A stretch of 64,000 nucleotides of DNA from an uncultured Chloroflexia bacterium (GCA_963791725.1 CAWBTQ010000003.1:129441-193440); one strand, 5' to 3'; counted from the first letter of the stretch, positions 452 to 16,511 are shown. Notes: a model not told the origin generated them from the letters alone. A program made the numbers and translations.

Positions 452-519
452 GCTGCCATTCTAACAGACATTATTATAACAAGGGTTTGCGCATCCGCCC
501 CCTGCGCCGGTTTCGGGGA

Positions 520-574: not shown

Positions 575-600
575 GGCGTGGGCGGACCCCGCCGGATCAC

Positions 601-1065
601 TCAGGTGCGGCGTTCGTCGACGATCACGCTCCCGACGTAGACGAACAGTGGGACCAGCAGGGCGATGACGAGGTAGTTCCACAGCCCATCACCCTCAAGG
701 GACGGAAGGTCTCCGTTCGACGCGAACGAGGCCCACATCAAGCCGACGTATACGACGACTGCCGACACCCAGTAGGCTCGCTGGCCCGCCCGTTGCCGAA
801 TCTGGACCCCCCGCTCGTCCCACTCCTCGACTACGAGTCGGCGGGCGACTTCTCCGTTCGAAATCGCCGGCCGGTACCGGACCAGCAGTCCGACTCCGAG
901 CCCGCTGAAGACGATGCCTAGGCCACCCAAGATGCGCAGGTTCCACGGGAAGTCCGGGTAAGCACGCGCCAACACGAGTGATGCCGCGAAGATCAGGATC
1001 CCGGATGCCAGGAGCAGCCAGCCGGCGCGGACTCGTGTCCGGAGCCAGGTCGTTCGATCAGTCAT
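601..1065 (-). CDS. Membrane protein, DUF2178-like, partner of XRE regulator
   Basis: About 4 hydrophobic segments, DER...I..RA motif; ATGA-coupled to the upstream HTH gene. Confidence 0.7.
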   Translation of the reverse strand: MTDRTTWLRTRVRAGWLLLASGILIFAASLVLARAYPDFPWNLRILGGLGIVFSGLGVGLLVRYRPAISNGEVARRLVVEEWDERGVQIRQRAGQRAYWVSAVVVYVGLMWASFASNGDLPSLEGDGLWNYLVIALLVPLFVYVGSVIVDERRT

Positions 1066-1265
1066 TGGTCGCCCTCCTCGTACAGGAACAGGTCTTCTAT
1101 CTGCGTGCCCAAGAGACGGGCTAGGCGGAAAGCCAGCAAGATCGATGGGTTGTAGCGGCCGCGTTCGAGCGAAATGATGGTCTGCCGGGAAACCTCTGCC
1201 CGATCGGCCAGCTCTTGCTGCGTCCAGCTTCGACTCGTGCGTTTCTCTTCCAGCCGGTTCTTCAT
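1062..1265 (-). CDS. XRE/Cro family HTH transcriptional regulator
   Basis: MKNRLEEKR...TQQELAD...VSRQTIISLERGRYNPSILLAFRLA. Confidence 0.92.
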   Translation of the reverse strand: MKNRLEEKRTSRSWTQQELADRAEVSRQTIISLERGRYNPSILLAFRLARLLGTQIEDLFLYEEGDQ

Positions 1266-1277
1266 GGCCCGCTTCGA

Positions 1278-1328
1278 TGTAAAGCTAGCTTGACCTCAGG
1301 ATTGTAAAGCGCACTTTACATCTGTCAA
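1278..1328 (-). promoter_or_regulatory. sigma70 promoter (TTGACA-N16-TACAAT) with two palindromic operators
   Basis: -35 at 1328-1323, -10 at 1306-1301; TGTAAAG-N4-CTTTACA 1303-1320; imperfect copy 1278-1295. Confidence 0.8.
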
Positions 1329-1542
1329 GCAGCAAAATGGGAAGCGTTGCCGGCGTCGGCTGGAGAGGCACAGTCAGCTCGGCGGCATCCGACGACGACG
1401 ATGGCACGGAGAGCGACCGGGAAGTTGGTAGAGCAGAGTAATCGGTATGCGAACCGCCCGGTCGGGTCGATCCGGCGGTCGCTGGCAGTGAGTCCGATAC
1501 GTCGGCCGCGCTGATCCGTCCGGACGTAAGAAACCCGGACCG

Positions 1543-1953
1543 CTAGGTCGAATCCGAGCGCCGCGCCGCCGACTTGCCTGCAATCTGGGCGGCTCCGAAG
1601 GCTGACTGAACGTTCTCCGCCCAGAACTCTCGGTAGTGCTCACGTGTCGTCTCGACGTACGGGAGCCGTTGGGCTACCAGCTCACCAGGGGTGAGGCCGT
1701 CGAATTGCAGGCCCCGCTTCGCCGCGAGGTCGAAGTACCTGTTGTCCGCCGTGTTGTAGAACAAGCAGGCAGTAATGATGTAGTCAAGGTTGTCGCGGTT
1801 GGGATGGCCCTTCGGCAGGAGGTGGTCCCAGGAGAGCGACAGCCAGTTGGCGAAAGCTTCGGTCCCATCGAGGCCACAGTAGCGGCACCGAAAACCGTCG
1901 CGACGGTGGACGGGCAGCGCGTAGCCCCGAAGCGCGTCGGTGAACCCAACCAC
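1543..1953 (-). CDS. HNH endonuclease (McrA-like), standalone
   Basis: HRRDGFRCRYCG...WDHLLPK...NLDYIITACLFYN; GAGGAG RBS before GTG 1953. Confidence 0.8.
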   Translation of the reverse strand: MVGFTDALRGYALPVHRRDGFRCRYCGLDGTEAFANWLSLSWDHLLPKGHPNRDNLDYIITACLFYNTADNRYFDLAAKRGLQFDGLTPGELVAQRLPYVETTREHYREFWAENVQSAFGAAQIAGKSAARRSDST

Positions 1954-1996
1954 GTTGGATCTCCTCTCGCTACACAGACCAATACCGGCCGATGCC

Positions 1997-4918
1997 GCTT
2001 CAATCCCCAGCCGGACGAGGATCATCGGTTCGATCAGTTTCGGCGGGTTTCAACCCTCAGCCGGCGACGTCGCCGGCTGCAACATGAGCGATCGCTTCGG
2101 CGTGGAACGGCTGCACGGTCTGGTTTCAACCCTCAGCCGGCGACGTCGCCGGCTGCAACATCACTTGCCGGCGATGAGACTGGCGGTCTTGGTGAAGTTT
2201 CAACCCTCAGCCGGCGACGTCGCCGGCTGCAACAGGGCTCCGCCACCACCAGCCCGTTCGTCACCCTGTTTCAACCCTCAGCCGGCGACGTCGCCGGCTG
2301 CAACCTCACGCACTCAGGCGACGGGCGGCCACCTAATCGGTTTCAACCCTCAGCCGGCGACGTCGCCGGCTGCAACGCGCCTAGCGCGGCGCGCGAGGTA
2401 GAACGTAGAACGTTGTTTCAACCCTCAGCCGGCGACGTCGCCGGCTGCAACGCAAGCAGTCGGGCGGCATCCTCACGTTGATCGGGTTTCAACCCTCAGC
2501 CGGCGACGTCGCCGGCTGCAACCGCCCTCGGCGATGTAGGACTCGTCCTCTTCCACACGTTTCAACCCTCAGCCGGCGGGACGTAGCGGGCCGCGGTCGG
2601 GGCCAGAAGGTTTCAACCCTCAGCCGGCGACGTCGCCGGCTGCAACGAGGCGCACCCGGGGCTCGCCGATGCGCTCGACAGTTTCAACCCTCAGCCGGCG
2701 ACGTCGCCGGCTGCAACCTTGAGGACCTCCATCACGGCCTCACGGCGTTCTTTAGTTTCAACCCTCAGCCGGCGACGTCGCCGGCTGCAACCCGCCGGCA
2801 ACGCCCAAGGTGTTTCCCTGCTGGTCAACGTTTCAACCCTCAGCCGGCGACGTCGCCGGCTGCAACACGCCGGCGTTCGTCCAGATCCCCGAGACCATCG
2901 TCAAGTTTCAACCCTCAGCCGGCGACGTCGCCGGCTGCAACAGCGCCGATACGAGCGGTGTTTTGATGAGCAGATCTGGTTTCAACCCTCAGCCGGCGAC
3001 GTCGCCGGCTGCAACTGCCACGCGGACAGGCTCACGGCCGCGACGTTGGTCTTGTTTCAACCCTCAGCCGGCGACGTCGCCGGCTGCAACCCCACGCTCG
3101 CAGTGCACGCCACACTCGGCGCAGTCGTTTCAACCCTCAGCCGGCGACGTCGCCGGCTGCAACCCGGCTGCGGCGGTCGCGGCCGAGCTGATCAGCGACA
3201 CGTTTCAACCCTCAGCCGGCGACGTCGCCGGCTGCAACCTTACAAACCCACGCCGCAGCGCTTCGGCCATCTGGTTTCAACCCTCAGCCGGCGACGTCGC
3301 CGGCTGCAACTCGAACTGCTCGAAGAGATGCAGCGCAGCCGAGAGGTTTCAACCCTCAGCCGGCGACGTCGCCGGCTGCAACGCCTCGGAGTCGAAGAAG
3401 ATCTGCTGCTGCTCGTTGATGTTTCAACCCTCAGCCGGCGACGTCGCCGGCTGCAACATGGCCTGCCGGCGGAGGTGGGCGAAGGCGTCGAGCAGTTTCA
3501 ACCCTCAGCCGGCGACGTCGCCGGCTGCAACTAGGCGATCAGGCCGCTATTGAAGGTCTGGTTGTAGTTTCAACCCTCAGCCGGCGACGTCGCCGGCTGC
3601 AACCGGGCGCGTCTCGGCCGGCTACCAGCGCCGATACGTTTCAACCCTCAGCCGGCGACGTCGCCGGCTGCAACATCGGCGGTGCTTGCGGCGGTGCTTG
3701 GACTTCTCGTTTCAACCCTCAGCCGGCGACGTCGCCGGCTGCAACACGGCAAATTCCGCGTGCGCAAATGCACCGTCATCCGCGTTTCAACCCTCAGCCG
3801 GCGACGTCGCCGGCTGCAACACGGCCCACACGACCGCGTCACGCTGATGGGGTTTGAGTTTCAACCCTCAGCCGGCGACGTCGCCGGCTGCAACCACCAG
3901 ATTGCCGCCGCTACGAACCCGGCGAGCCCGTTTCAACCCTCAGCCGGCGACGTCGCCGGCTGCAACGCCGACGTACGTCGTGGTGAACAAGTTCAGCATC
4001 GCGAGTTTCAACCCTCAGCCGGCGACGTCGCCGGCTGCAACCCATTACAAGGCCGTTGAGCTCGTCGTCGTCGAACCCGTTTCAACCCTCAGCCGGCGAC
4101 GTCGCCGGCTGCAACCAGCCCCCGCTTGCGGGGGTTTGGGGGAATCAGTAGGTTTCAACCCTCAGCCGGCGACGTCGCCGGCTGCAACTCGCCGAGTTCG
4201 GGGTCCTCGCCAGTTCAAAGCAAGTTTCAACCCTCAGCCGGCGACGTCGCCGGCTGCAACTTCGCGCCGCCGTCTGCAGAGCAGACGCCGAGCATGTTTC
4301 AACCCTCAGCCGGCGACGTCGCCGGCTGCAACCGTGATTTCGGCCTTGCATCAGGAAGGCGATCGCTTCGTTTCAACCCTCAGCCGGCGACGTCGCCGGC
4401 TGCAACTCCTTGAGGAAGACGCGACGCTCGAGGTCGGCGAGTTTCAACCCTCAGCCGGCGACGTCGCCGGCTGCAACCCCGTAACCTGCGGATCCACAGC
4501 CCGAAGGTTGTGAGCACGTTTCAACCCTCAGCCGGCGACGTCGCCGGCTGCAACCGTTGCGCTTTGCACAGGCTTTGACCAGGGCGCGACCGTTTCAACC
4601 CTCAGCCGGCGACGTCGCCGGCTGCAACGTGACCCGATCGCTGTCCCTCGCGCAGATCATGAAGTTTCAACCCTCAGCCGGCGACGTCGCCGGCTGCAAC
4701 ACGTATTCCTCGACGAGATACGAGGTCGGCGCCACGTTTCAACCCTCAGCCGGCGACGTCGCCGGCTGCAACCCTCCTATGCGGTGAAGTAGGCCGTGAT
4801 GTCGATGACGTTTCAACCCTCAGCCGGCGACGTCGCCGGCTGCAACTGGCAGAGCCCGTCGTTGACGCGGTAGCCGTAGGGGTTTCAACCCTCAGCCGGC
4901 GACGTCGCCGGCTGCAAC
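1997..4918 (-). CRISPR. Type I-C CRISPR array: 37-bp repeat GTTGCAGCCGGCGACGTCGCCGGCTGAGGGTTGAAAC; 40 repeats 2047-4918 (one aberrant at 2559) plus a degenerate terminal half-repeat 1997-2014; spacers about 34-40 nt
   Basis: Repeats counted manually; GAAAC 3' end; leader next to cas2 and degenerate repeat at the far end define minus-strand orientation. Confidence 0.98.
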
Positions 4919-5081
4919 AGCAACAGAGTGTACCTAACCGCCCAACCAGCCCTATATGTAGCGGTTTCGTCTCCGAGATACGCACGCCAATCGGTCGCCG
5001 GCGACCACTCGCCTACTGCTGACCTCAGAATTTGCGCGGACCGCACGCTCAGCGGCGCCCGCGCCGGAGATTTGCGCCTGG
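4919..5081 (-). promoter_or_regulatory. CRISPR leader
   Basis: Noncoding gap between cas2 and first repeat; TACACT -10-like hexamer at 4932-4927; ATTTGCGC direct repeats at 5030 and 5070; 14-bp palindrome 4993-5006. Confidence 0.8.
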
Positions 5082-5372
5082 CTACAGGACGAGCGGGTCG
5101 TGAATGTCATAGGCGACTTGCCGACCAAAGGTCCGGACGTATGACGCTCGGGGCTCCAGGAGTCGATAGATGCGAAGGCTGTCCTCCAGCTCTGACATCT
5201 CACGTCTAAGCCGCGAGATCAGCCTCGCCAGCTGGGCTTCATCCAGCTGGCACTCGAACACCGACTTCTGCACGCGTTGGCCATGTGCCTCACAAACCTG
5301 CGCCACCCGCCGCAACCGCTGCCGGCCGGCCGCGGTTTCCGTGGCCACGTCGTACGCAACTAGCAGCTCCAT
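5082..5372 (-). CDS. cas2: CRISPR-associated endonuclease Cas2
   Basis: LVAYDV...RLRRVAQVCE.HGQRVQKSVFEC...DSLRIYRL. Confidence 0.97.
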   Translation of the reverse strand: MELLVAYDVATETAAGRQRLRRVAQVCEAHGQRVQKSVFECQLDEAQLARLISRLRREMSELEDSLRIYRLLEPRASYVRTFGRQVAYDIHDPLVL

Positions 5373-5385
5373 TCATGGACTCCGG

Positions 5386-6414
5386 TTAGCGATGGAGGTA
5401 AGGCAGGTACACGTCCACGTCGCCCCGTAGATGACGGGCGAGGAGACGCGCTTGGACATGCGGAACGAGACCAAGTGGCAGCTTCTGGCGCAGCGCTGTG
5501 TGTCGCACCTCTTCCTCCTTTCGCTTCTGGTAGGCCGTTAGAACGAGGCGCCGGCCGTCCTCGGAGAGGTAAGTTGCGCCCCCGGGCTGGACATCGAAGT
5601 GCGCCGGGCGTAGTTGCCGTCGGTTGAGGAGGCTAAGCGCCAGTCTGTCAGCAACCACCGGCCGCAGTTCCTCCATCAGATCGAGCGCAAGAGCGGGCCG
5701 TCCCGGGCGGAGCGCATGCAGAAACCCAACCTGCGGGTCCAGACCAACTCCTTCAAGCGCGGCGGAACACTCCGAGCGCAGGAGGGCATACAGGAACGAG
5801 AGCAGTGCGTTCGCAGGATCGCGAGGCGGGCGTCGCGTCCGCCCGGCCGGACCCATGGCCACGTCGTCGCGAACCAGGCAGCGGAGTGCCGCGAAATAGA
5901 CGCGCCCGGCTTCGCCCTCGCACCCGAGCACCTCGCCGAGCTGCGCGGCGTCGCGGAGGCGGGGGAAGATCGCCGCGAGCCGGGCCGCCGCAACCGAGAG
6001 CTGCTCCCGGTCCGCCTCCGTCGGGGCGTCCCGGGCAGCCCGAAGCACGAGGCGGCGGCAGTTCTGGATCTTCCCCGCCACAAACTCCCGCGCCAGAAGG
6101 CTCGTATGCTCCTGATCGCAGAGAGCTAGGTGCTGTGCCCGCCGCAGGAGCACGTTACCCCGGGTCTGGCCTTCGACGCGAGCCTTGAACCGGCCGTGTT
6201 CATCGAGCCACACCAGACTCCTGCCGTCCTCTGCGCAGCGTTCGATTACGTAGGGCGTGAGAGTGACTCGGCCAAAGACAACCACGCCATTCAACCGGAG
6301 CAACGGAACGCGCAGGCGAGTCTCGTGCTCGACTTCCACCCGAAGAGTGTCGTGCTCGACGTGAATAACGGCACCCTGAGTCATCACATACAGGACGTTC
6401 AGTAGCTCACGCAT
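5386..6414 (-). CDS. cas1: Type I-C Cas1
   Basis: LLNVLYVMTQGA...GNVLLRRAQ...EGEAGRVYF...RRPPRDPANALLSFLY...LALDLMEELRP; start reassigned to ATG 6414. Confidence 0.97.
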   Translation of the reverse strand: MRELLNVLYVMTQGAVIHVEHDTLRVEVEHETRLRVPLLRLNGVVVFGRVTLTPYVIERCAEDGRSLVWLDEHGRFKARVEGQTRGNVLLRRAQHLALCDQEHTSLLAREFVAGKIQNCRRLVLRAARDAPTEADREQLSVAAARLAAIFPRLRDAAQLGEVLGCEGEAGRVYFAALRCLVRDDVAMGPAGRTRRPPRDPANALLSFLYALLRSECSAALEGVGLDPQVGFLHALRPGRPALALDLMEELRPVVADRLALSLLNRRQLRPAHFDVQPGGATYLSEDGRRLVLTAYQKRKEEEVRHTALRQKLPLGLVPHVQARLLARHLRGDVDVYLPYLHR

Positions 6415-7057
6415 CGTCTTTGCCCTCGGCTGGTCGGAAGAGAGCGCTGCCAAGGCCAGCAACCCGGTGTCGGTCACTCACCAGTCCCGGAAGGCAAGCC
6501 TCCCGGAGAGAGCACCATCGACAGCGCCGCCGATCGGTGATCGGCGGCGGAACGACCTGGCGCTGGAGCAGGCCGCGGACCCCTTCGATCGCCTCAGCTG
6601 TATGGGTGCGCAGCCGCTCATCGAGCATGACCTCGCGTCGTCGACGTTCCGCATGCTGGTAGATCGAACCTGTCGGCACTACTTGGCCGAACATCTCCTC
6701 AAGGCAGAACGCCTGAGCGCAGAGTTGCAAGTCGGCGTGGATGCCGCCCCTGCGACCGGACTTGTACTCGATCGGATATGGGCCGGCCGGCCGCAACTCG
6801 ACAACATCGGCTTTGCCGATCAGGCCGTATCGTTCCGACCACAGCGGGAGTGCGCGTAGCACCCTGACGCCGCGGGAACTCTCGCCCATCCCAGCGTCCA
6901 CGACCTCGTGGAGCAGATGGCCGCGAACCGTGTACAGGTTCTCGTCGAACGTCTGCTCCACGTGGATCAGCCCGCACTGACGCGGGCAGTAGCTGAAGTG
7001 CTCGACAGCCGAGATGGGCACGTCCAGGCGGCTCGTGCCGGCATCGTCCTCGTCCAT
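6407..7057 (-). CDS. cas4: CRISPR-associated exonuclease Cas4
   Basis: HFSYCPRQ, GKADVVE, PIEYKSG, QLCAQAFCLEEM, C-terminal CRWCSLREAC Fe-S motif. Confidence 0.96.
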   Translation of the reverse strand: MDEDDAGTSRLDVPISAVEHFSYCPRQCGLIHVEQTFDENLYTVRGHLLHEVVDAGMGESSRGVRVLRALPLWSERYGLIGKADVVELRPAGPYPIEYKSGRRGGIHADLQLCAQAFCLEEMFGQVVPTGSIYQHAERRRREVMLDERLRTHTAEAIEGVRGLLQRQVVPPPITDRRRCRWCSLREACLPGLVSDRHRVAGLGSALFRPAEGKDDA

Positions 7058-7061
7058 GGCG

Positions 7062-8009
7062 TCAGCAGAGCCGAGTGATGGTCACACCGTCCGGAATGTT
7101 GGCCTCGTCAACCGCAACATCGTAGTCGTGGAAGGACCGCGGGACGGTCACTCCCGCGCGACGCCGAATTGCGATCCGTTCCAGAAGCTGGTGAGCCGGC
7201 GCATTGCCGAGACTGCTCTCGTGCGAGAACACGATGAGCCCACGGCAGGCCATCATCCCGCGTGCGGACGAACGGTCCAGATCCCACATCTGCGCAAGAG
7301 CCCGCCAGAAGAGCGCAAGGTCCTCCGAGGTCACGCCCGTCTGTGCGGCGAAATGCGGGTTGAAGAAGCCGTACGCCCGATACAGCCCGTAAGGGACGAT
7401 CGGCTTGCGGCCCATCTCGGTCCGCTTACCGCTGGTCTGCCCTGCCTCGCTAACGACGACCTTGGCTTCTTCCTCGCGGGTCACCGCTACCCGGGTAATG
7501 GAAAGATCGAGAGGCGTAATCGGATCGATCGAGCGGGCAAATGTGAGCTGGATCGGCCCTCGGACCTGGCCGCAATTGACCTCGGTCGTCATCACCGCGC
7601 CGAAGACACGAATGTCGTAGAAGTTCTCGCACATCCAAGGGCGCACCCTATCGATGTCCTCGCGCTTCTGCTTGGAGCCAGTTGATTTGATGTCGAGTGA
7701 CTCGTAAGCGCGGCGGTGCTGGGCGTTGAGCGCCCGACCGTCGCTCTCAACGTAGATCTTGAAGCGACTCGACTCGGGCGCTGCCACATCGCCGTGAACG
7801 GCTGCCACGAAGTCGCGGACCTTGCGCTTTATGGCTACGTCGGTGACGAGACCCTGCATCGTCTCCGGATCGACGCGGGGCAGATTGCCGGCGTCGGGGT
7901 CGCCGTTGGGATTGCCGTCGGCCACATCGAACAGGAGCATGAAGTCGTGCCGTCGATTGACGTCGATATGAGCCCCTGCCGGAGCAGCGGGCTGAACAGG
8001 TGTTGTCAT
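7062..8009 (-). CDS. cas7c: Type I-C Cas7/Csd2
   Basis: FDVADGNPNGDPDAGNLPR, VTDVAIKRKVR, CENFYDIRVFGAVM, VRGPIQL, GNAPAH. Confidence 0.97.
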   Translation of the reverse strand: MTTPVQPAAPAGAHIDVNRRHDFMLLFDVADGNPNGDPDAGNLPRVDPETMQGLVTDVAIKRKVRDFVAAVHGDVAAPESSRFKIYVESDGRALNAQHRRAYESLDIKSTGSKQKREDIDRVRPWMCENFYDIRVFGAVMTTEVNCGQVRGPIQLTFARSIDPITPLDLSITRVAVTREEEAKVVVSEAGQTSGKRTEMGRKPIVPYGLYRAYGFFNPHFAAQTGVTSEDLALFWRALAQMWDLDRSSARGMMACRGLIVFSHESSLGNAPAHQLLERIAIRRRAGVTVPRSFHDYDVAVDEANIPDGVTITRLC

Positions 8010-8040
8010 CGATCGATCTCCCTCGAAGGTTGCTGTGTTT

Positions 8041-8478
8041 CTATGCCCCGGGCTCGACTGACGCTTCAGCCGATGGTTCTTCGCTACCTTTGCGGCGTGC
8101 ATCGGCGCGGCGATGCATCTCGGCTCGGTCCTTGGCCCGCTGGTGGTAGTAGCCGAGAGCGAAGAGACCCTGCTCCTGCAACGTAAGAGTGGTTGGGAAT
8201 CCCGCGGGCGAGATCGCGGCGAGCACTTCCTCCAGCCGCCGCTCGATCGCGTGGTAGACGCCAGGTCGATCGCGTTCGAGTTTGGCCAGATGCGGCCGGG
8301 CCCCGTGGAGAAGCGTTCCGAAGACGCTCGCAGGGGCTGAAGATGCCGAGCCGTAGAAGCGATCGACCAGCGTTGCCGACAGATTCGGGATTGCCTCTCG
8401 CTGGGCTTCTTCGAGCACCGCTAGAAGCCGCCCGCAGTGATATGCCGGACGCGGTTCGCCAGACTCTAGTGACTCCAT
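8041..8478 (-). CDS. cas11c: Cas11c small subunit translated from an internal in-frame start in cas8c (145 aa)
   Basis: GGAGGG (8492-8487) 8 nt before in-frame ATG 8478, just ahead of the AYHCGRLLAVLE domain; internal Cas11 translation is known in type I-C. Confidence 0.75.
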   Translation of the reverse strand: MESLESGEPRPAYHCGRLLAVLEEAQREAIPNLSATLVDRFYGSASSAPASVFGTLLHGARPHLAKLERDRPGVYHAIERRLEEVLAAISPAGFPTTLTLQEQGLFALGYYHQRAKDRAEMHRRADARRKGSEEPSAEASVEPGA

Positions 8479-9792
8479 TGCGTGGTCCCTCCAGTCGAGT
8501 TGACGGGCCAGGCAGAGCTTGATTAGCGCAGCCCGGGGATGGGTGAATTTGGCGTCCTGTGGCGTGCGGTCCTGAGCTGCCCGCACGCGGCGAAGCGCTG
8601 CCGCGAGTATGTCGGGCGGCAGGGCCGCGCCGGTCAGGGCGGAATGGAGCAGGGCGCGAGGCAGAGGTCGTGGAAGATCGCGGATATCGCGCACGGTCGA
8701 ACTCGCGAGCGCGAAGAGTCCGTGCGGCTTCCATGTCTCCCCGTTCGGCGACACGATGGCCTGTTGGGCGAACCAGCGGCCGAGCGACGCCTTGGCCTCC
8801 ACAAGAGTCGCGTCGAGCCAGTCGCGCACGACGACACGCCCGCCGCTAGCCGAGAGTGCGGCCGCGAAGAAGCGGGTGTCGTCAACTAGTTCAGGCTTGA
8901 CCGGCGACCATGCTGCCGCGATCAGCGCCCGGACCTCTTCGGGATCGGGGGTCTCCAGTGGCCGGCGGAATGCGAAGGACGTCCGACCCTTCGTCCAGAA
9001 AATGAAGGCCACGTCGCCGACCCGAATCGATGTCCGCTCGGTCGCCAGAAGTTCGTTGAGCCCATCCGTGAAGCCCTCTGCGCATTCTCGGCAGGTCGGC
9101 GCGATCCGGGATTCGTGTAATCCGTAAGACTCGAACGCGAGAGCGTTTGCCGAGATGAGCGAGGTTCCGGACGTCTGACCACCCGGTACACCCTTGACCT
9201 TCTTGGGCAAGCGATCCAGGACTGCCCGCTCGCGACCACAGACGACACATTGCATGACGTCCGCTCCATGGGCCGCCGGATCGTGTTCTGCCGCCCAGAA
9301 GGCAGCGACAGCGGCACGCTCGATTGGCAGCGAACCGTCTACCGAAAACGTAAGGAACGCCCCGGCATCGAAGTCCGACGGAAGGATGAGTTCCGCGAGT
9401 GGATCGGATCGAGCGAAGGACAGAACAGCGGCAACTGCTGGATCGCCGGTCTCGGTCGCGCATCGCTCCAGAAGCCCAAGATAGGCAGCGTGCCGCACCT
9501 TTGCTCGCTCAACTGTGGTCCGCGCCAAGCCAAAGGTGTACTCGGCGTTGTCGGCGAGGAGCAATGGACGGACGGCACTCGCCCGCTGGTGGGTTGGCGC
9601 CAGCCTTCTCGTGCCGCGCTTCGTCTGCCGCCCGGCTGGGTCAGCCGTGTCGATCGGCGCCGGTGAGACCAGATGGCCTTTACTGTCGATATCGACGATG
9701 TAGCGGATCGCAACCGGGCCGTAGCCTGGTAGCGGAGCCGCTCTGCCGTCTGCTGGACGCTCCTGATACTCCACCAGTCGTTGGAGCAGCAT
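8041..9792 (-). CDS. cas8c: Type I-C Cas8c/Csd1 large subunit
   Basis: MLLQRLVEY, LLADNAEY, CVVCG...LISAN..AFESYG...C..C, AYHCGRLLAVLE, QGLFALGYYHQR. Confidence 0.95.
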   Translation of the reverse strand: MLLQRLVEYQERPADGRAAPLPGYGPVAIRYIVDIDSKGHLVSPAPIDTADPAGRQTKRGTRRLAPTHQRASAVRPLLLADNAEYTFGLARTTVERAKVRHAAYLGLLERCATETGDPAVAAVLSFARSDPLAELILPSDFDAGAFLTFSVDGSLPIERAAVAAFWAAEHDPAAHGADVMQCVVCGRERAVLDRLPKKVKGVPGGQTSGTSLISANALAFESYGLHESRIAPTCRECAEGFTDGLNELLATERTSIRVGDVAFIFWTKGRTSFAFRRPLETPDPEEVRALIAAAWSPVKPELVDDTRFFAAALSASGGRVVVRDWLDATLVEAKASLGRWFAQQAIVSPNGETWKPHGLFALASSTVRDIRDLPRPLPRALLHSALTGAALPPDILAAALRRVRAAQDRTPQDAKFTHPRAALIKLCLARQLDWRDHAMESLESGEPRPAYHCGRLLAVLEEAQREAIPNLSATLVDRFYGSASSAPASVFGTLLHGARPHLAKLERDRPGVYHAIERRLEEVLAAISPAGFPTTLTLQEQGLFALGYYHQRAKDRAEMHRRADARRKGSEEPSAEASVEPGA

Positions 9793-9795
9793 CGC

Positions 9796-10458
9796 CTAGC
9801 CCTCCCATGCCCGCTTGTTGGGCGGTGGCGGCACGTGCAGCACTCCATGTTCGAGCTGGGCCCGGAAGAAGCGCGGCTGGCCACGGCCTGATGTGTCCGG
9901 CTCGTAGTCGATGTCCAGGAGCATCGAGCCGAGATCCTCGGACACGTCGATCGCCTGCTCCCCGAACACGCGCTCTCCGAAGCTGGCGCTGAACTCGCGA
10001 CAGCCAAGGTAGGGCGTCGCGAAGCATCGGCCGTCGGCCACGCGCCGACGGAACTGGTCGCGGTACTTGGCTGGGTTCTCGACTACTCCGGGCCGCAGCT
10101 CGACCTGGGACCGGACTAGATACGCCACGTCTCGCAATGCGAGCGTGTGGCGCTGCGCGCGGTCTTCGCTCGCGTCATATCCGCCCCCGTTCTCTGCCCA
10201 GCCCTGGGCGATCTCAGCGCTAGCTCGCGAGTTGACCTCATTACGCAGGATCGAGAAGTAGCGGATGGGACGGAGCAGCCAGATCTCCTCGATGCGCCAA
10301 CGGAACTCTGGTTTCCAGAAGATGGCTTCTAGTGCACCTCGAGCGGCCGAGGGCGTCATGAGCGGGTAGCTCACGCGCTCGACCTTCATCTCTGGCCTGG
10401 TGAAGCAGGCGAGGTCGCCCCACAGTCGGACTTCGCAGGGACCTAGAGCTTCGCTCAT
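9796..10458 (-). CDS. cas5c: Type I-C Cas5 (Cas5d), crRNA-processing
   Basis: WGDLACFTRPEMKVERVSYPLMTPSAARGALEAIFWKP, PYLGCREF; GGGAGG RBS. Confidence 0.97.
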   Translation of the reverse strand: MSEALGPCEVRLWGDLACFTRPEMKVERVSYPLMTPSAARGALEAIFWKPEFRWRIEEIWLLRPIRYFSILRNEVNSRASAEIAQGWAENGGGYDASEDRAQRHTLALRDVAYLVRSQVELRPGVVENPAKYRDQFRRRVADGRCFATPYLGCREFSASFGERVFGEQAIDVSEDLGSMLLDIDYEPDTSGRGQPRFFRAQLEHGVLHVPPPPNKRAWEG

Positions 10459-10474
10459 GGCACCTCCCTCTGGT

Positions 10475-12652
10475 TCATACGACAAGATCGGCGGGCATGG
10501 CGCCTTCATCAATCAGACCTCGCACGGCGTCGTAGCCACCTAGCCACTCGGCCACTCCGGGCAGGAGTTCGTTCGCCAGCCCATGGCGCAACGCCACATC
10601 GAACCGCCGCCGATGCAGCTGGACGATGTAGGGCTGGAGCCTTCGCATGGTGGGCCGCGCGGACAGAAAGCCCGAGCGCAGGACATCGAGCAGTCGATCG
10701 ATCTCCGCGACTTGCCGTGCAGGTCCATAGCGGACCACGACCGAGGATCGAGGCTCATCGATCATGCGGAACCGCTCTTCCACGTCCGGATAGTCAAAGA
10801 CTCCACGGCGCTCCTGGATGCGCTCCCTGTCGGTATCAATGAGACCGAATAGCCGCTCGAAGTACCTCCGAACCGTCTCCGGATCGTTTGGGTCCGCCTG
10901 GGGACTATTCACGACCGCATCCGAGAGGCCGGCAGCCGTCCGATACGACCCGGCCGGCAGATGACCAGCCTCGGGTCGGAAGACGACGACGGAGCCCGAA
11001 ACAAGGCGGCCCTCGCGGTTACACCGCCCAGCGGCTTGGATGATCGAGTCGAGCGGGCCGCGCGCGCGCAGAACCAGCGGAAAGTCAAGATCGACCCCCG
11101 CCTCGACGACCTGGGTAGAGACCAGCCGACACGGCTCGCCTGCGTCGAGTCTGCGCCGGACCTCGGCGATCACGGCTCGCCTATGGGCGCCGCACAAGAG
11201 GGTCGACAGGTGCATCGTGTCTGGATCGTCCAACGCATCGAGCAGATCAAGAGCGTCGGTCTTGCTGTTCACGACTGCCAGAGCCTGCGGCGCCTCCATC
11301 ATGCGCCGTGCGACTTCGGCCCAAGGCCACGGCTCCGTTGGCCACTCAAAGCGAACTCGGCGCAGAGCGGCGAAGTGCCGCTCTGGGTTCGGTACGATCT
11401 CACGAGCTTGCAGCCGCCGGAAGACAGGGATGGCCTCGAACGCTGGCTGCGTCGCCGTCGAAAGGACGACGGTAGCGCCGTAGTGGCGAACAAGCTCCGT
11501 GACCGCATCGAGGATCGGCGTCAATAGGTGCGGCGGCAGTGCCTGCGCCTCGTCCAGAACGATCACGCTGCGGGCGAGTCGATGGAGCTTCCGACAGCGG
11601 CCTGGGTGCGCCGAGAACAGACTCTCGAACAGCTGAATCGTCGTAGTGACGACGATAGGTGCATCCCAGTTCTCCGTCGCAAGTCGACGACGGACCTGTG
11701 AGCTGTCCTGGTCGCCGTCGTCGTCGGGTTGCTCGACCACGCCGCTGTGGTGTTCGAGCACCGTCAACTCGTCGCCATCCGGAGGGCCGAGCGCCCAGCG
11801 GTAGGCGTCGGCAGTCTGTTCCGTGATCGTCAGGAATGGCACCGCGACGATGACGCGATCAAGGCCGTAGGTGATCGCGTGCCGAAGCGCAAAGGCCATT
11901 CCCGAGAGAGTCTTGCCACCGCCGGTTGGGACCGTCAACCGGAAGAGGCCAGGAGGCGCATCGGCAGCCGCGAGACAAGCCTTGTACACATCGGCGCGCG
12001 CCTCTGCGACACGGCCAAAGCCGACCGGCATCGTGGCGTGGTTGGCCTCGAAACGCCGCCACAATTCGGACAAAGCGAGAGCGGTCCCTCGCATTCCGCT
12101 TGCCGCCGGATCGAAGTGCGCCTCAGTATCGAGGAAGTCAGCATCCACGAGCGCCGAGAACATGAGCCGTACGAATGTCTCGGCCGCCAGTGGGTCGTCA
12201 ATCCATTCGGGCAGGTCGACAGGCTTGCTTGGCTGCAGGTTTGGGATCTCCGCGAATGCCCTTTCGAGTGACTGTACGGCTCCGCCGTCGGACGCCCGCT
12301 CGGCAAGCCACGCCCTCAGGCCCGCAGAGCCTTCACGGGCACGGAGCCCGCCGTGGTGTCCCTGGACAGCCATCGCCAGAGGCCCGAGCTGCTGTTGGTA
12401 CGCCAGCTGGGCACCAGCCGCCTTGTGGTCTCCACCAGCACCGCGGCGGCCCTTTCCCTTGGCGCAAGCCTGTAGGTACGTCTGGAACGTGTCCGAGTAC
12501 TTCCCGATGTCGTGCCAGAGCCCGAGGTAACGAGCAGCTTCTGACGCGCCGAGACTGGTCCCGAAGCGTTCGGCCCGTTCCGCGGAACCTTCCAGGTGCT
12601 CCACCAACCCGTGCCACCGCCCGGCAGCATTAGGTGTGTGCGCGTAGGCCAC
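10475..12652 (-). CDS. cas3: Cas3 HD nuclease/SF2 helicase
   Basis: YAH...HL...WHDIGK, ALVDADFLDT, PTGGGKT, DEAQ, STAT, STQVVEAGVDLDF, QAAGRCNREG. Confidence 0.97.
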   Translation of the reverse strand: MAYAHTPNAAGRWHGLVEHLEGSAERAERFGTSLGASEAARYLGLWHDIGKYSDTFQTYLQACAKGKGRRGAGGDHKAAGAQLAYQQQLGPLAMAVQGHHGGLRAREGSAGLRAWLAERASDGGAVQSLERAFAEIPNLQPSKPVDLPEWIDDPLAAETFVRLMFSALVDADFLDTEAHFDPAASGMRGTALALSELWRRFEANHATMPVGFGRVAEARADVYKACLAAADAPPGLFRLTVPTGGGKTLSGMAFALRHAITYGLDRVIVAVPFLTITEQTADAYRWALGPPDGDELTVLEHHSGVVEQPDDDGDQDSSQVRRRLATENWDAPIVVTTTIQLFESLFSAHPGRCRKLHRLARSVIVLDEAQALPPHLLTPILDAVTELVRHYGATVVLSTATQPAFEAIPVFRRLQAREIVPNPERHFAALRRVRFEWPTEPWPWAEVARRMMEAPQALAVVNSKTDALDLLDALDDPDTMHLSTLLCGAHRRAVIAEVRRRLDAGEPCRLVSTQVVEAGVDLDFPLVLRARGPLDSIIQAAGRCNREGRLVSGSVVVFRPEAGHLPAGSYRTAAGLSDAVVNSPQADPNDPETVRRYFERLFGLIDTDRERIQERRGVFDYPDVEERFRMIDEPRSSVVVRYGPARQVAEIDRLLDVLRSGFLSARPTMRRLQPYIVQLHRRRFDVALRHGLANELLPGVAEWLGGYDAVRGLIDEGAMPADLVV

Positions 12653-12814
12653 TACTAAGCCCTTCCGTGTCGAGATCCCCGATGTCTTGCGACTCTGCGA
12701 CTCGGCCGTGCCAGCTAGTCTGACACGTCCCCAACCGACGCCGTGGGTCATTCGACCGCCAACGGCCGCAGTCCAGGCCTTGCAGTCCTGGCCAATGTAT
12801 GTTACATAGTCTGT

Positions 12815-13420
12815 ATGGATCTACCGGACATCGGCCGCTATCGACGGCGCTTCATCGTGGAATTCGGCCCGGAAGACTCGGGTCTCGTGGACCGCGTGGG
12901 CGAGGTCTACAAGACCAAGCGCGCCGCCATCATCGCTGGGCTGCGCTTGCTCGACAGTGGCGAGACCGCGCAGCTGCGGGTGCGGCTCGCTGCGCTTGAG
13001 GCGGAACTGTCGTCCGCCCGCGAGGCGCTAGAGGACAAAGCAAAGGCTATCCACGACGCCAAGCCGGCCGCGGCGCTGGCCAAGGCCGACCTGCGGGAGA
13101 AGCGCCAGGAACTCGCCGCTGCCCGGGCAGAGGTGCGGCGGCTCAAGGCTGCCAATGCGGACGTGCGGCGCGCCATTGTCGAACTTACCGCCGAGCGGGA
13201 TCGGCTCAACGATCTGGTCCCCCACCACGCCTATTGTGGCTACTGCGACAAGCTCGTACCCGAAGCCGAATGGGCCGAGCAACCCGGCCAAGGTGGCTAT
13301 CTGGTCTACCACAAGCCCGACGGCTACAGAGCAAAGGGCGGCATCGTCGGCCGACCCGCGACCGTTCTCTTCTGGCGCGAGAAGTCGCTCTTGGCACCGC
13401 GCGACGGCTCGTCAGAATGA
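12815..13420 (+). CDS. Hypothetical protein: putative ribbon-helix-helix N-terminus, coiled coil, Cys/His C-terminus
   Basis: RRFIVEF strand plus two helices, long A/E/K/R heptad region, HHAYCGYC..H; ATGA-coupled to next gene. Confidence 0.7.
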   Translation: MDLPDIGRYRRRFIVEFGPEDSGLVDRVGEVYKTKRAAIIAGLRLLDSGETAQLRVRLAALEAELSSAREALEDKAKAIHDAKPAAALAKADLREKRQELAAARAEVRRLKAANADVRRAIVELTAERDRLNDLVPHHAYCGYCDKLVPEAEWAEQPGQGGYLVYHKPDGYRAKGGIVGRPATVLFWREKSLLAPRDGSSE

Positions 13421-13659
13421 TCGACATGACCGACGCCAACCCGCTCTTCTCCGAGCCGCTCGGGCTCATCTGGTTCATCGCGATCTGGCTGCTCGCGCGC
13501 ATGGCCCGCTCCCGCCCGGCGCCAATCGCGGGCCGGGCAACGATTGCGCTCGGCCCACCGCGTCTTGTCCCACTCGACCCCGATGAGGAGGTCGCTGCAA
13601 GCCGGCTTCTAGCGAGCATCGCAGCCGATGCCATGGCCGAGTCGGAGGGTTGGGGATGA
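13417..13659 (+). CDS. Small hypothetical protein (80 aa) with one hydrophobic segment
   Basis: ATGA overlaps at both ends (13417-13420, 13656-13659); LGLIWFIAIWLLA segment. Confidence 0.6.
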   Translation: MIDMTDANPLFSEPLGLIWFIAIWLLARMARSRPAPIAGRATIALGPPRLVPLDPDEEVAASRLLASIAADAMAESEGWG

Positions 13660-15185
13660 GCAGCACCGTCCGCGTCGCGCTCTATACGCGGATCAGCACC
13701 GACGAAGTCAACCAGCCGTACTCGCTTGGGGCCCAACGCGATCGGCTCGAAGCCTATGTGAAGTCTCAGCCGGATTGGACGATCACAAACGTCTACACCG
13801 ACCAGGCAAGCGGCAAGAACCTGAACCGGCCCGCCCTGGCAGCGGCTCGGTCGGCGGCCGCCGCGGGCAAGTTCGACATCCTGCTCTTCTATCGGATCGA
13901 TCGCCTCTCGCGGGTTCTGGGCGATCTGATAGCCATCGTCGGTGACCTTCAGGACAAGGGCGTAGGGCTGCGAAGTGCGACGGAAACGTTCGACACGTCA
14001 AACCCTGCCGGCTGGCTGCTCGTCCAGGTCCTTGGCTCGGTCGCTGAGTTCGAACGCTCGACGATGCTCGACCGCATCAGGGCAGGAATGGAGCGCAAAG
14101 CCGCGCGCGGAGAATGGACTGGCGGTGTGCCGCCATATGGCTATCGAAAGGCGCACGGCGAGTCTCTCCTGAGACCCGACCCGGAGGCCGGCCCAATCGT
14201 TCGGTCGATCTTCACCCGCTACGTCCGGACACGCGACGGCGCCCGGTCAATCGCCGATTGGCTCAACGGGCAGGGCGTGCGGACTCGTTCTGGCGTTCCT
14301 TGGTCGACATCGGGTGTTCTGAGTCTGCTTCGAAACCGGGCGTACATCGGCGAGGTGAGCTTCCGCGGAGTCTGGGGTCCGAGCAAGCACGAACCTATCG
14401 TCGATCTGGAACTCTTCGACGCTGCCAAGGCCATTCTTGATCAGCGTGGCGGATCACCGGGCATCCGCCGGACCAATGCGACCGAATTCCTGTTGAGCAC
14501 GCTGCGGATCGTGTGCGATCGGTGCGGCCACCCGATGGTCGGCGCGAGCGCCCGTGGTCGGGGCGGGAAGCTCTACTCCTACTACACATGTTCTACTCGC
14601 GTTCGAAAAGGACCAAAGGGCTGCGACCAGGAACGCTTGCCCAAGGACGAACTAGAGCAGGCGGTGTTGGCGCAGATGACCGAGGTCTACGCCGACACGG
14701 GCCTCGTCTCTACCGCACTCGAAGATGCGCAGGTGGAGACGCGCGCCAGAGATGCAGAACGCCAAGCGGAGCACGATCGGCTCCAAGCCCATGCCGCCGA
14801 ACTTCGCCGCAAGATCGATCGCTACGTGGCGGCCTTCGAGGCTGGCGAGCTGCAGGCCTTCTTGCTTCAGAACCGCGTGGGCGACCTCCAGGCCGAGCTT
14901 GCCGCGGCTGAGTCAGCGATTGCACAAGAGCCGGCGGCGGAGCCCATGTCGGGCCAGGCTGACTTCGGCCTGGTGTCCTGGGGCCTCAGCAAGGCCCTGG
15001 GAGACGTTCTCGCGAGTAGGTCGCCACGCCTGACCAAGGCACTCCTGCGAGTCCTGATCGGAGAGATACGCGTGGTCTCGCCGATTGACATACGGCCCAC
15101 CTACCGGGTACCGGCGGCCGAGGTTCGCATACTGGAGGGGCTGGTAGGGGAGGGAGGACTCGAACCTCCAACCGAGGCTGTATAA
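13656..15185 (+). CDS. Large serine recombinase (integrase)
   Basis: ALYTRISTDE catalytic Ser, IDRLSR, AEFER, GGVPPYGY, LRNRAYIG, HEPIVD, zinc ribbon CDRCG...YYTC...C, coiled coil. Confidence 0.96.
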   Translation: MSSTVRVALYTRISTDEVNQPYSLGAQRDRLEAYVKSQPDWTITNVYTDQASGKNLNRPALAAARSAAAAGKFDILLFYRIDRLSRVLGDLIAIVGDLQDKGVGLRSATETFDTSNPAGWLLVQVLGSVAEFERSTMLDRIRAGMERKAARGEWTGGVPPYGYRKAHGESLLRPDPEAGPIVRSIFTRYVRTRDGARSIADWLNGQGVRTRSGVPWSTSGVLSLLRNRAYIGEVSFRGVWGPSKHEPIVDLELFDAAKAILDQRGGSPGIRRTNATEFLLSTLRIVCDRCGHPMVGASARGRGGKLYSYYTCSTRVRKGPKGCDQERLPKDELEQAVLAQMTEVYADTGLVSTALEDAQVETRARDAERQAEHDRLQAHAAELRRKIDRYVAAFEAGELQAFLLQNRVGDLQAELAAAESAIAQEPAAEPMSGQADFGLVSWGLSKALGDVLASRSPRLTKALLRVLIGEIRVVSPIDIRPTYRVPAAEVRILEGLVGEGGLEPPTEAV

Positions 15186-15218
15186 GAGCCGTGCTCTGAC
15201 CAATTGAGCTACTCCCCC
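15142..15218 (-). tRNA. tRNA-Ile (anticodon UAU), 77 nt with encoded CCA
   Basis: Cloverleaf GGGGGAG-TA-GCTC AATTGGTCA GAGC-A-CGGCT CTTATAC AGCCT-CGGTT-GGAGG TTCGAGT CCTCC-CTCCCCT-A-CCA. Confidence 0.92.
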
Positions 15219-15266
15219 GCCGGGGCACGATCGTACACCAAGAGGCCGATCCCGCAGCGGCCGCGT

Positions 15267-16511
15267 TCAGTCCACGCCGCCGCGGAGAACCTCGATCTGG
15301 GGCCGGTGCGGGATCGTCTCGGGCGTGTTCGAGGCCACCAGCGCCACACCGTCGCGGAAGCGACGCAGCTCGGCATCCGTGTTGAAGAAGCCGACGCTGA
15401 TGCGAATCGCGTCGAGCGGCGGAATGGTTCGGGCGATACACAGAGTGCGCTGCGAGAGCTCCTTCAAGGCCGCGGTGGACTTCCAGCCGGCGATCCGGAA
15501 CGTGACGAGCCCGGCCATGTTGTCGCGCGGCGTCAGCATCTGCACTCCGGGGACCTCGACCAGCATCGACGCCGCCTCGCCGGCAAGCCGGGCGATCCGC
15601 TCGTGGATCCACTGCCAGCCCACGAACATCGAGAGCCACGCCGCACTGCGGGCCAGGCCCAGCACGGACGGCTGATGGTAGTTCGAGGCCTCGAACCGGC
15701 GGGCGTCGGGCCACGGCTTGCCCTCCCCCACCAGATCCATCGATTCGAAGCTGAAGTAGCCGGCGAATGCCATGCGCGGTCGGTCGAGCACCGCTGGCGC
15801 GCAGTAGACCGCGCCGACGCCTTCGGGCCCGAGCAACCATTTCTGGCCCGGGACGGCGTAGAAGTCCGCTCCCAGGTCCTCGACCGAGACCGGCAGCGCT
15901 CCGACCGCCTGGGCGCCATCGACGGCAACGACCGCGCCGCGGGAATGAGCCAGTTCGGCGATCTCACGGACAGGGAGCCGCGCGCCGGTGGCCCAGGTCA
16001 CGTGCGAGAGCGAGACGAGCCGCGTGCCCGGAACGATCGCCCGATCGAAGGCCGCGACGACCGCCGCCGCATCGGCGGCGTCCCCGATGTCGGCGATCGA
16101 GAGTTCCACGCCGAGGCGATCGCGAATCGCCCACAGCGGCCCGAGTCCGCCGGCGTGCTCGAGGTTCGTAGTCACCGCTCGATCCCCGGGCCGCCAATCG
16201 ACCGCCCATGTGGCTACGTTCATACCGTCCGTGGTGGCGTGCGTCAGCGCAACCTGCGCCGGGCCCGCGCCTATGACGGCGGCAACCGCCGCGCGCGCCT
16301 CGGCCATGCGCTCGAGCGAGTCTCGATAGTGATTCAGGTCCGCCCGGCCGGTGCGCAACTCCCACGCCTCCGCCTCGGCCATGGCATGGGCCGTTTCCCT
16401 CGGCAGTGGTCCGGCGGTGCCCGTGTTCAAGTAGATGCCCGCGGCCGTGGATGGGAGCGCCTCGCGGATCGCGGGGATCTTTTCGTCGTCGGGAAGGAAT
16501 GGACTCACCAC
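15267..16511 (-). CDS. Class V PLP-dependent aminotransferase/lyase (CefD/EgtE-like)
   Basis: YLNTGTAGP, EH, VDGAQAVG, PGQKWLLGPEG, RISVGFFN; lacks the SufS RAGHHC motif. Confidence 0.88.
   Translation of the reverse strand: MVSPFLPDDEKIPAIREALPSTAAGIYLNTGTAGPLPRETAHAMAEAEAWELRTGRADLNHYRDSLERMAEARAAVAAVIGAGPAQVALTHATTDGMNVATWAVDWRPGDRAVTTNLEHAGGLGPLWAIRDRLGVELSIADIGDAADAAAVVAAFDRAIVPGTRLVSLSHVTWATGARLPVREIAELAHSRGAVVAVDGAQAVGALPVSVEDLGADFYAVPGQKWLLGPEGVGAVYCAPAVLDRPRMAFAGYFSFESMDLVGEGKPWPDARRFEASNYHQPSVLGLARSAAWLSMFVGWQWIHERIARLAGEAASMLVEVPGVQMLTPRDNMAGLVTFRIAGWKSTAALKELSQRTLCIARTIPPLDAIRISVGFFNTDAELRRFRDGVALVASNTPETIPHRPQIEVLRGGVD

Follow-up and report, generated by a model that had tools for sequence, protein, structure and literature searches.

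A type I-C CRISPR-Cas system as probable cargo of a 13.7-kb serine-recombinase island at a tRNA-Ile gene of an uncultured Chloroflexia bacterium

How does a complete adaptive immune system come to stand back to back with a large serine recombinase (LSR) whose gene runs into that of a transfer RNA (tRNA), and is it the recombinase that put it there? The question is raised by a 64,000-nucleotide (nt) stretch of DNA from an uncultured Chloroflexia bacterium, which at its full length is called the window here (contig C3:129441-193440 of the 3.19 Mb source genome, G000). An earlier note on this DNA had proposed that a type I-C system of clustered regularly interspaced short palindromic repeats and their associated genes (CRISPR-Cas) makes up, with the recombinase, an excisable immunity island, and that the two might share a control region or even a function. 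Our answer is that window 1426-15147 is very probably a 13,716-bp integrative island in which the CRISPR-Cas system and an HNH-like open reading frame (ORF) are cargo, and in which the cas genes have no mechanistic link to the LSR. In what follows, G-numbers are relatives' genomes, L-numbers individual loci and X1-X4 public sequencing runs. Domains were assigned with Pfam to 19 ORFs of the window, with additional PHROG scans, and tRNAs with ARAGORN.

The recombinase, its target and the two attachment (att) sites lie as follows, in window coordinates:

1426-1490, plus strand: attL, with the core TGGTAG at 1426-1431, a 10-nt spacer, the P' arm TCGGTATGCGAACC at 1442-1455 and a conserved block reaching to about 1490
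13656-15185, plus strand: LSR, 509 amino acids (aa) from its ATG, assigned by Pfam (longest ORF from 13650, 511 aa)
15122-15147, plus strand: attR, with the P arm GGTTCGCATACTGG at 15122-15135, 6 nt, and the core TGGTAG at 15142-15147
15142-15218, minus strand: tRNA-Ile(UAU), the integration target, called by ARAGORN with anticodon TAT, the sole tRNA in the window

The attR core is the complement of tRNA nt 71-76, and the length given above is measured from core to core. The layout was derived from a relative, G057, in which an island occupies a tRNA-Leu(TAG) gene, by comparison with the same site, empty, in G000. On the tRNA side of the G057 island the end of the tRNA is followed by 6 nt and then by the 14-mer CCAGTATGCGAACC; on the far side comes the reverse complement of the 14-mer and then a copy of the tRNA end, and the ends carry a 12-nt direct repeat that contains CCACCA. 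In G000 the 14-mer recurs exactly at 15122-15135, within the 3' end of the LSR gene, and again in the opposite orientation, with two mismatches, at 1442-1455, where TGGTAG stands 10 nt before it. With up to two mismatches the 14-mer occurs 22 times in the genome, but the left end taken as a whole is specific. A profile of the left end (nhmmer), built from seven left ends that all come from genomes other than G000, has its best match in the genome at window 1417-1490 (C3:130857-130930, E 1.2e-12); next come an orphan end on contig C9 (7.2e-11) and the two ends of an element on contig C2 (1.3e-6 and 3.1e-5). Alignment of 12 left ends brings out a common layout and a second conserved block, some 15-35 nt inside the arm. 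Junctions could be mapped in six elements, and one intact attP was found, with shared cores of 6-12 nt; this agrees with the sites of serine integrases, where a short pseudo-palindromic attP and a shorter attB have little sequence in common and hybrid attL and attR bound the element. The second att site that the earlier note had expected is therefore there; it lies inside the window, at 1426-1455, to the left of where that note had begun the island.

The orphan end (C9:20604-20670) has no LSR nearby; a tRNA-Gln(CTG) lies 4.5 kb off, and its end mismatches the core.

Four public runs were compared with window 1000-15600, as contigs rather than reads, and in X1-X3 most of the island is without cover. 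In X4, one contig joins position 1425 to position 15142, skipping 13,716 bp, with 6 nt that fit either side, at a depth of 2.84. The length skipped is the length computed beforehand from the cores. Other X4 contigs lie inside the island, with 0-3 differences and at depths of 2-4, so the run holds the same or a near-identical strain. Presence and absence thus vary exactly at the att cores, and this argues for LSR-mediated insertion, with or without present excision.

The relatives, with which the earlier note had recommended a comparison, show that the site is variable. To the right of the tRNA, the flank (an aminotransferase and DNA ligase) is matched in 31 of 31 sampled genomes, with long synteny in the 19 that belong to the genus. 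To its left, the DNA of ten relatives was compared: in nine, matches to contig C3 are confined to C3:93.6-115.1k, about 30 kb leftward, and the tenth, G014, additionally matches a block at C3:123-130k, inverted. In G010 the tRNA directly adjoins an M50 peptidase gene, the G000 homologue of which ends at C3:115041. Cas8c was found in five of 51 genomes of the genus, and in the four other than G000 it is only 34-38% identical. With a guanine-plus-cytosine (GC) content of 0.651, the island lies below its flanks (0.68-0.69) and the genome at large (0.679). The sequence of the tRNA-Ile is identical in five relatives that have no LSR at the site. No second copy of the 3' half of the tRNA was found in the genome, where only chance matches of 11-21 nt turned up, and so the displaced 3' fragment that the earlier note had expected to the left of the window is absent. 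By the symmetry of the site, crossover would fall at the extreme 3' terminus of the tRNA, and the fragment search came up empty because only the 6-bp core is duplicated.

As the earlier note had described, a divergent operon ends in an LSR that overlaps the tRNA. The overlap is 44 nt: the LSR frame runs on into tRNA-Ile(UAU) and stops in the anticodon loop, so that its last 14 codons and stop are tRNA sequence. Protein homology among members of the LSR family ends at about residue 494 of 511, just before the tRNA, and the LSR is 509 aa long when integrated as against 524 aa across the rebuilt circle junction; the C-terminal tail changes. The protein has the domains Resolvase (PF00239), Recombinase (PF07508) and Zn_ribbon_recom (PF13408), and matches PHROG integrase at E 1.1e-116. 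R6, S14, D82, R83, R86, C287, C290, C312 and C323 are invariant in seven homologues, and by their type these residues would be catalytic (R/S/D) and zinc-ribbon (four Cys), respectively. The target is one of 47 tRNAs in G000 and its sole AUA decoder, since only two CAT tRNAs exist. It carries a G1-U72 pair; its presence points to AUA decoding of the UAU type in this lineage, rather than of the lysidine type.

The family to which this LSR belongs was surveyed at three depths: 51 genomes of the genus (E <= 1e-20), 401 sampled genomes of the class (E <= 1e-80) and a wider set of 31 loci from a collection of species-representative genomes, of which the 25 closer relatives (L062-L086) were used. 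Matches were found in 10 of the 51 and 12 of the 401 genomes. G000 itself holds only two, the second being 54% identical and situated at tRNA-Ala(CGC) on contig C2. The LSR touches or runs into the 3' end of a tRNA with its own 3' end in 6 of 8, 8 of 12 and 13 of 25 loci (five of the 13 repeat earlier loci). Among homologues 42-74% identical to the LSR the tRNAs represent 12 isoacceptors—Ile-TAT, Val-CAC, Ala-GGC, Ala-CGC, Ala-TGC, Leu-TAG, Leu-CAG, Met-CAT, Lys-CTT, Arg-CCG, Arg-TCT and Glu-CTC—and four of these occur among homologues that are 70-74% identical. The loci without a tRNA are mostly cut by the end of a contig or belong to homologues of 42-59% identity on short contigs. Two LSRs at tRNA-Ala(TGC), in L055 (G114) and L057 (G192), lie about 0.9 kb from a tRNA-Ile(GAT); the pairing of these two tRNAs is typical of the 16S-23S spacer.

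Sister elements with mapped ends, and one with an intact attP, are these:

G056 element: about 11.6 kb, core TGGTGG, both ends mapped, at tRNA-Val
G004:C13 element: about 12.6 kb, core of 9 nt, both ends mapped
G042 element: about 2.9 kb, core of 10 nt, both ends mapped
G057 element: about 7.5 kb, core of 12 nt, both ends mapped, decayed, at tRNA-Leu(TAG)
G000:C2 element: about 11.3 kb, core of 6 nt, both ends mapped, with diverged arms of the GGTTCGCCGT type
G004:C72 attP: near L044 6262-6311 (loci L044 and L060)

When the two ends of any mapped element are joined, the arms come to lie 22 nt apart. The same spacing is seen on the 16.9-kb contig G004:C72, which has an intact attP, the LSR frame running across it, and no tRNA; this contig, which is without terminal overlap, looks like an unintegrated copy of a C2-type element. 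The G056 element might seem to end at L037 13394, where 10 nt of the tRNA-Val end are repeated; this reading was rejected, there being no arm beside the repeat, and the true end is in L038. The element on contig C2 (C2:433789-445203; L043, L061) has two left-end sites 2 kb apart, at C2:443140 and C2:445174. Cargo, taken as what lies between mapped ends or next to the module, differs from one element to the next. The C2 element has a 546-aa protein of no assigned family, with an AbiJ-like protein just past its outer left end, and G004:C72 an MmeI-like methylase and a 543-aa protein, also of no assigned family. G056 carries an ABC transporter, a peptidoglycan-binding protein and an insertion sequence (IS), G004:C13 a P-type ATPase, a CLC channel, a Na/H exchanger, an ABC-2 transporter and MarR, G057 RHS and transposases, and G042 essentially nothing. 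Some are decaying: the LSR of G057 is truncated, G042 has lost most of orfA, the first gene of the recombinase operon, and G014 keeps 75 bp of LSR.

Run X1 yielded a further relative, a 5-kb contig from a peat metagenome at a depth of 524, on which a left-end homologue (window 1445-1490) is flanked by sequence like a G056-type end. Either a sister element or the organism that bears it is very abundant in that metagenome.

Several observations weigh against an island that the LSR inserted at the tRNA and can still excise. A single contig of depth 2.84 carries the empty-site joint; its shorter side is just 24 letters long, which makes it a kind of joint to be read with caution, and its source may be a strain without any history of the island rather than excision. 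No circular (attP) junction was seen in the four runs compared, and the shares of the region in the public runs are small, 0.05-0.09. Exact-pattern scans for an intact attP with this type of arm found none in viral and none in metagenome contigs, though the pattern is so strict that this says little. No directionality factor was identified. The host-side half of attB is without a clear arm motif, a tRNA-Met of G000 likewise terminates in the core CTACCA, and no tRNA stands at the LSR end in 12 of the wider set's 25 loci, mostly those of homologues with 42-59% identity on short contigs. Of the excisability that the earlier note had proposed, then, the precise empty-site junction was found, in X4, and the circular junction was not seen.

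The alternative that fares best takes these points at face value: the island would be a fixed remnant that no longer excises, and the empty-site contig would stem from a co-occurring strain that never received it. We think this unlikely. The LSR gene is undamaged, as are its two companions orfA and orfB, the catalytic-type residues are conserved along with the zinc-ribbon cysteines, both cores are identical and both arms good, and the empty-site contig (2.84) is about as deep as the in-island pieces of the same run (2-4), all of which tells against a remnant, even though the missing circle junction, the missing directionality factor and the decay of several sister elements (G057, G042 and G014) would suit one well enough.

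A second alternative concerns not the nature of the island but its extent. Between the M50 gene and attL lie some 15.8 kb (C3:115095-130865, including window 1-1425) with a GC content of 0.664 and genes for DsrE, Lgt, PadR, hemerythrin, TehA, OsmC, TusA, an ACR3-like protein, ArsP, TauE, YlbF (twice) and ArsA. A weak left-end-like sequence at C3:115095-115130 opens the stretch, after the M50 gene, and recurs in G018. In G014 a homologous block, inverted, stands between a good left end and the 75-bp LSR remnant at that genome's tRNA-Ile. The stretch is possibly an older, decayed cassette of the same family, the CRISPR cassette having been inserted later, between it and the tRNA; tandem accretion of this kind is described for the cassettes of the staphylococcal cassette chromosome (SCC) in the available part of PMC11470126. 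If so, the mobile unit might be a composite of about 29.5 kb (C3:115.1k-144.6k), an arsenic/sulfur stress cassette and a CRISPR cassette in tandem, excised together or separately in the manner of tandem SCC cassettes. The direct contact of tRNA and M50 gene in G010, the left-end-like sequence after the M50 gene in G000 and G018, the GC content of the stress-gene stretch and the arrangement in G014 all lean this way. Against it, the outer site is not significant by the left-end profile (E 5.6), there is no second LSR in the stretch (the genome's two matches being already accounted for), and the sole joint seen skips 13,716 bp rather than 29.5 kb, in a comparison that ended short of the outer site. 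We regard the composite as improbable, and return to the 13.7-kb island itself and to what it carries.

The cargo consists of the following:

1543-2025, minus strand: ORF of 160 aa with a weak HNH-nuclease signature (PHROG HNH endonuclease, best E 2.1e-7; Pfam HNH, E 0.19)
2047-4918, minus strand: CRISPR array, 39 exact 37-nt repeats and one truncated repeat, with spacers of 34-40 nt
4919-5081, minus strand: putative leader between cas2 and the first repeat, from position only
5082-5372, minus strand: cas2, adaptation (Pfam)
5386-6477, minus strand: cas1, adaptation (Pfam)
6407-7057, minus strand: cas4, adaptation (Pfam)
7062-8102, minus strand: cas7 (Csd2 type), interference (Pfam)
8041-9792, minus strand: cas8c/csd1, interference (PF09709 Cas_Csd1, E 2.6e-121, full length)
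9796-10512, minus strand: cas5 (Cas5d), interference (Pfam)
10475-12751, minus strand: cas3, HD plus helicase, interference (Pfam)

The ORFs between 5082 and 12751 are all intact, and in the direction of reading their order is cas3-cas5-cas8c-cas7-cas4-cas1-cas2, which is the canonical type I-C order. The type rests on its signature subunit, Cas8c (Csd1), accompanied by Cas3, Cas5, Cas7 and an adjoining array. The complete set of adaptation and interference genes and the 40-repeat array reported in the earlier note are thus upheld, with the qualification that 39 of the repeats are exact and one is truncated. The latter (2560-2579, 20 nt kept) lies inside an 87-nt array interval, 2523-2609, which looks like a small internal deletion or rearrangement. 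The array is probably read on the minus strand, to judge from the GTTGAAAC-like end of the repeat and the position of cas2. Intact cas ORFs and 39 identical repeats would be compatible with activity in interference and adaptation. No Cas6 family, which type I-C systems lack, is among the 19 ORFs of the window that were scanned. Compared with the genome and the collected loci, the spacers give no full match, only partial matches of 17-22 nt. In spacer 33 (window 4478-4517) the first 22 nt equal part of a tRNA-His gene, C2:151850-151871, and the remainder is unmatched; the spacer was possibly taken from a mobile element with a tRNA-His fragment. The 160-aa ORF, with attL on one side and the array's trailer end on the other, is a cargo or accessory gene.

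Opposite the cas genes, and pointing away from them, lies the rest of the integration module:

12781-12814, plus strand: promoter-like block of the LSR module, from alignment of six orfA upstream regions
12815-13420, plus strand: orfA, 201 aa, candidate regulator or directionality factor
13417-13659, plus strand: orfB, 80 aa, hydrophobic helix, acidic tail

Only orfA and orfB stand between the cas genes and the LSR, and neither has a Pfam or PHROG family (coiled-coil noise aside), in keeping with the earlier observation that no phage or conjugation genes lie there. ATGA overlaps couple orfB both to orfA and to the LSR. In the orfA protein the basic N-terminus is conserved and to the eye resembles a ribbon-helix-helix; there is also a coiled coil, and the C-terminus contains Cys and His. 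It is 38-67% identical across four aligned sister modules and was found by tblastn beside the LSR in 6 of 8 loci and in 6 of the 25 loci of the wider set; orfB is kept in three sister modules at 35-43% identity. Conserved with the LSR as they are, the two suggest themselves as candidate regulator and candidate directionality factor. A predicted complex of LSR and OrfA scored 0.00, which carries no weight either way. The promoter-like block has TTGCAG and then TACATA (or TATATA) in a short palindrome directly before the orfA ATG, an arrangement that suggests a leaderless message; the block forms the left boundary of what is conserved of the module from element to element. The gap from the longest cas3 ORF to that ATG is 63 bp; the figure of about 160 bp given earlier would require a later start codon for cas3.

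Are the two halves of the island, facing each other across so short a gap, coupled? Regulation in common, or a guided or immunity-linked recombination, might be read into operons that lie back to back, 63-160 bp apart, and the earlier note had raised both. Nothing in the family bears this out. The promoter-like block recurs in five aligned sister modules, all with other cargo; since it travels with the module whatever the cargo, the divergent gap is a junction of module and cargo, not a shared control region. The same module and block are found with transporters, a P-type ATPase, RHS/IS, an MmeI-like methylase, or nothing. When the seven Cas proteins were searched (tblastn), none matched beside the family LSRs, neither at 10 loci nor at the 25 of the wider set, so that of the three partners whose co-occurrence the earlier note had wished to see traced, orfA recurs with the LSR and cas does not. 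The only cas matches in the wider LSR set stand beside a 30%-identical, resolvase-like gene of a planctomycete, outside the family. The closest cas loci, L093 and L094, come from metagenome contigs: Cas8c is 87% identical there, and DNA identity is about 77% over window ~2979-12725, from the array to the start of cas3. Homology breaks off precisely at the beginning of the LSR module and at that of the left end, and the loci have in their flanks a LacI-type regulator and a tyrosine integrase instead, with no LSR module. The coupling is, we think, highly improbable; the platform is modular and the cas genes are its cargo, with no sign of a mechanistic link to the recombinase.

The tyrosine integrase gene of L093 (12466-13395) lies beyond the trailer end of the array, where the cas-array module may ride on another integrative backbone. 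ARAGORN also called tRNA-SeC in L093 and L094; these calls fall within CRISPR repeats and were dismissed.

That LSR homologues carry unrelated cargo, which the earlier note had named as a sign of chance adjacency, is a fact; with the cargo enclosed by att sites that have been mapped, however, chance does not follow from it. The notion that only the 2.4-kb orfA-orfB-LSR segment is mobile and the cas genes are ordinary chromosome, for which one might cite the cargo-free G042 element of about 2.9 kb and the end of inter-module homology about 20 bp upstream of orfA (at window 12795 in the case of G056), is scarcely credible when there is no left-end site between cas3 and orfA, when the only good plus-strand arm to the left of the LSR in this part of C3 is the one at 1442-1455 (window and genome scans), when the left-end profile match contradicts it and the X4 joint removes the cas locus too, and when cas8c was not found in 46 of the 51 genomes of the genus.

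How, then, might an LSR insert at the 3' end of a tRNA? Very probably, the LSR recombined attP with the 3' end of tRNA-Ile(UAU), which acted as attB. As rebuilt from the junctions, attP falls within the 3' end of the gene for the LSR itself and has a pair of 14-bp arms in inverted orientation, with 22 bp between them. If the centre of the site is set by symmetry, the dinucleotide at which crossover occurs would be tRNA nt 71-72, the last two letters of the core. The element would then supply only the ACCA end and what lies beyond, the tRNA remaining intact; in the integrated state the integrase frame continues into it. By the canonical LSR model, the zinc-ribbon domain would read CGAACC. Counted from the centre of the site, the arms are at 12-25 in both halves of attP, with CGAACC at 20-25. 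In the half-site that belongs to the tRNA, CGAACC is at 15-20, and this is the T-loop, nt 57-52 (the complement of G52-G57, in the T arm). For LI integrase, the available part of PMC3783163 places the zinc-ribbon motif at attP positions 16-24 and 5 bp nearer the centre in attB. The length of the half-site (25 bp) and the 5-bp shift of the motif fit the LI model, and by analogy suggest that the zinc ribbon may read the universal T-loop. We offer it tentatively, as something rather more apt to prove wrong than right, that the LSR family as a whole reads generic tRNA architecture: a footprint on the T-loop (nt 61-53), crossover at nt 71-72, and attP arms that have the T-loop motif 5 bp outward. 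Such reading would explain the many tRNA targets among close integrase relatives. The acceptor stem must be read too, because CTACCA and CCACCA end several tRNAs of G000 (CCACCA nine of them).

Among known systems the nearest in function is SCC/SCCmec, which integrates at the rlmH/orfX gene. There, too, CRISPR-Cas is cargo on a small island without conjugation or phage genes, an LSR inserts and excises at one chromosomal site, cargo is variable and cassettes may stand in tandem; a type III-A CRISPR-Cas lies in SCCmec, is excised with it and is moved by the Ccr large serine recombinases (PMC10434264 and PMC11470126, in the parts available). The differences are that the target here is the 3' end of tRNA-Ile, which leaves the island outside SCC as that class is defined, that the CRISPR type is I-C instead of III-A, and that CRISPR-Cas is nearly the whole of the cargo. 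The likeness is one of function: the island works like an SCC cassette and is not a member.

With the serine integrases A118/LI, Bxb1 and phiC31 the LSR shares three domains (resolvase, recombinase, zinc ribbon), an attP that is pseudo-palindromic, some 50 bp long and made up of half-sites of 25 bp, identity of attP and attB over only a short length, and a motif at attP ~16-25 that recurs 5 bp nearer the centre in attB, as far as these are described in the accessible portion of PMC3783163. It differs in that one half-site of attB is the acceptor and T arm of a tRNA, that attP lies within the 3' end of the integrase gene, so that integration alters the tail of the protein, and that phage genes and an identified directionality factor are lacking. 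Islands of the Islander type likewise sit at a tRNA gene, adjoined by an integrase gene and leaving the tRNA intact (PMC4383910, in the part available). The recombinase here is of the serine family instead of the tyrosine family, which puts the island outside that class, and the displaced fragment is only 6 bp long, because of which methods based on tRNA fragments would miss it.

The tycheposons of Prochlorococcus integrate at tRNA genes. They are modular, cargo-carrying integrative elements, a minority of which (937 minus 910 elements) encode an LSR (10.1101/2020.12.28.424599, in the part available). The host phylum and the cargo are different, the same part of that source makes no mention of CRISPR-Cas cargo, and the likeness is one of description, not of sequence. 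A keyword search of the open-access literature found no LSR family that targets tRNA 3' ends, no account of att logic of this kind and no LSR-borne I-C cassette, an absence that counts for little. CRISPR-Cas cassettes moved by LSRs are already known as a class of event; what is new is an LSR that targets tRNA 3' ends, apparently with the T-loop as its anchor.

What the locus offers is a complete adaptive immune system in the form of a 13.7-kb cassette, with mapped junctions and a population-level empty site, in an uncultured soil/sediment lineage, and in such lineages few mobile elements have been characterised so far. It also brings a family of serine integrases to tRNA 3' ends, a class of site long ascribed to tyrosine integrases. 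Every genome has tRNA 3' ends, and for that reason the logic of these att sites—conserved arms on the outside in imitation of the T-loop, and between them a centre that varies to match the end of the tRNA—would, if confirmed, be useful for integrase engineering. If the T-loop is indeed what is read, the integrase could switch from one tRNA gene to another with few changes, and would make a retargetable scaffold. Because the island has no genes for conjugation or packaging, its transfer from cell to cell depends on something else. If the family does read generic tRNA architecture, it would be a modular platform that moves whole immunity systems, here a complete I-C CRISPR-Cas, and stress genes through the uncultured Chloroflexota with no phage or conjugation genes of its own.

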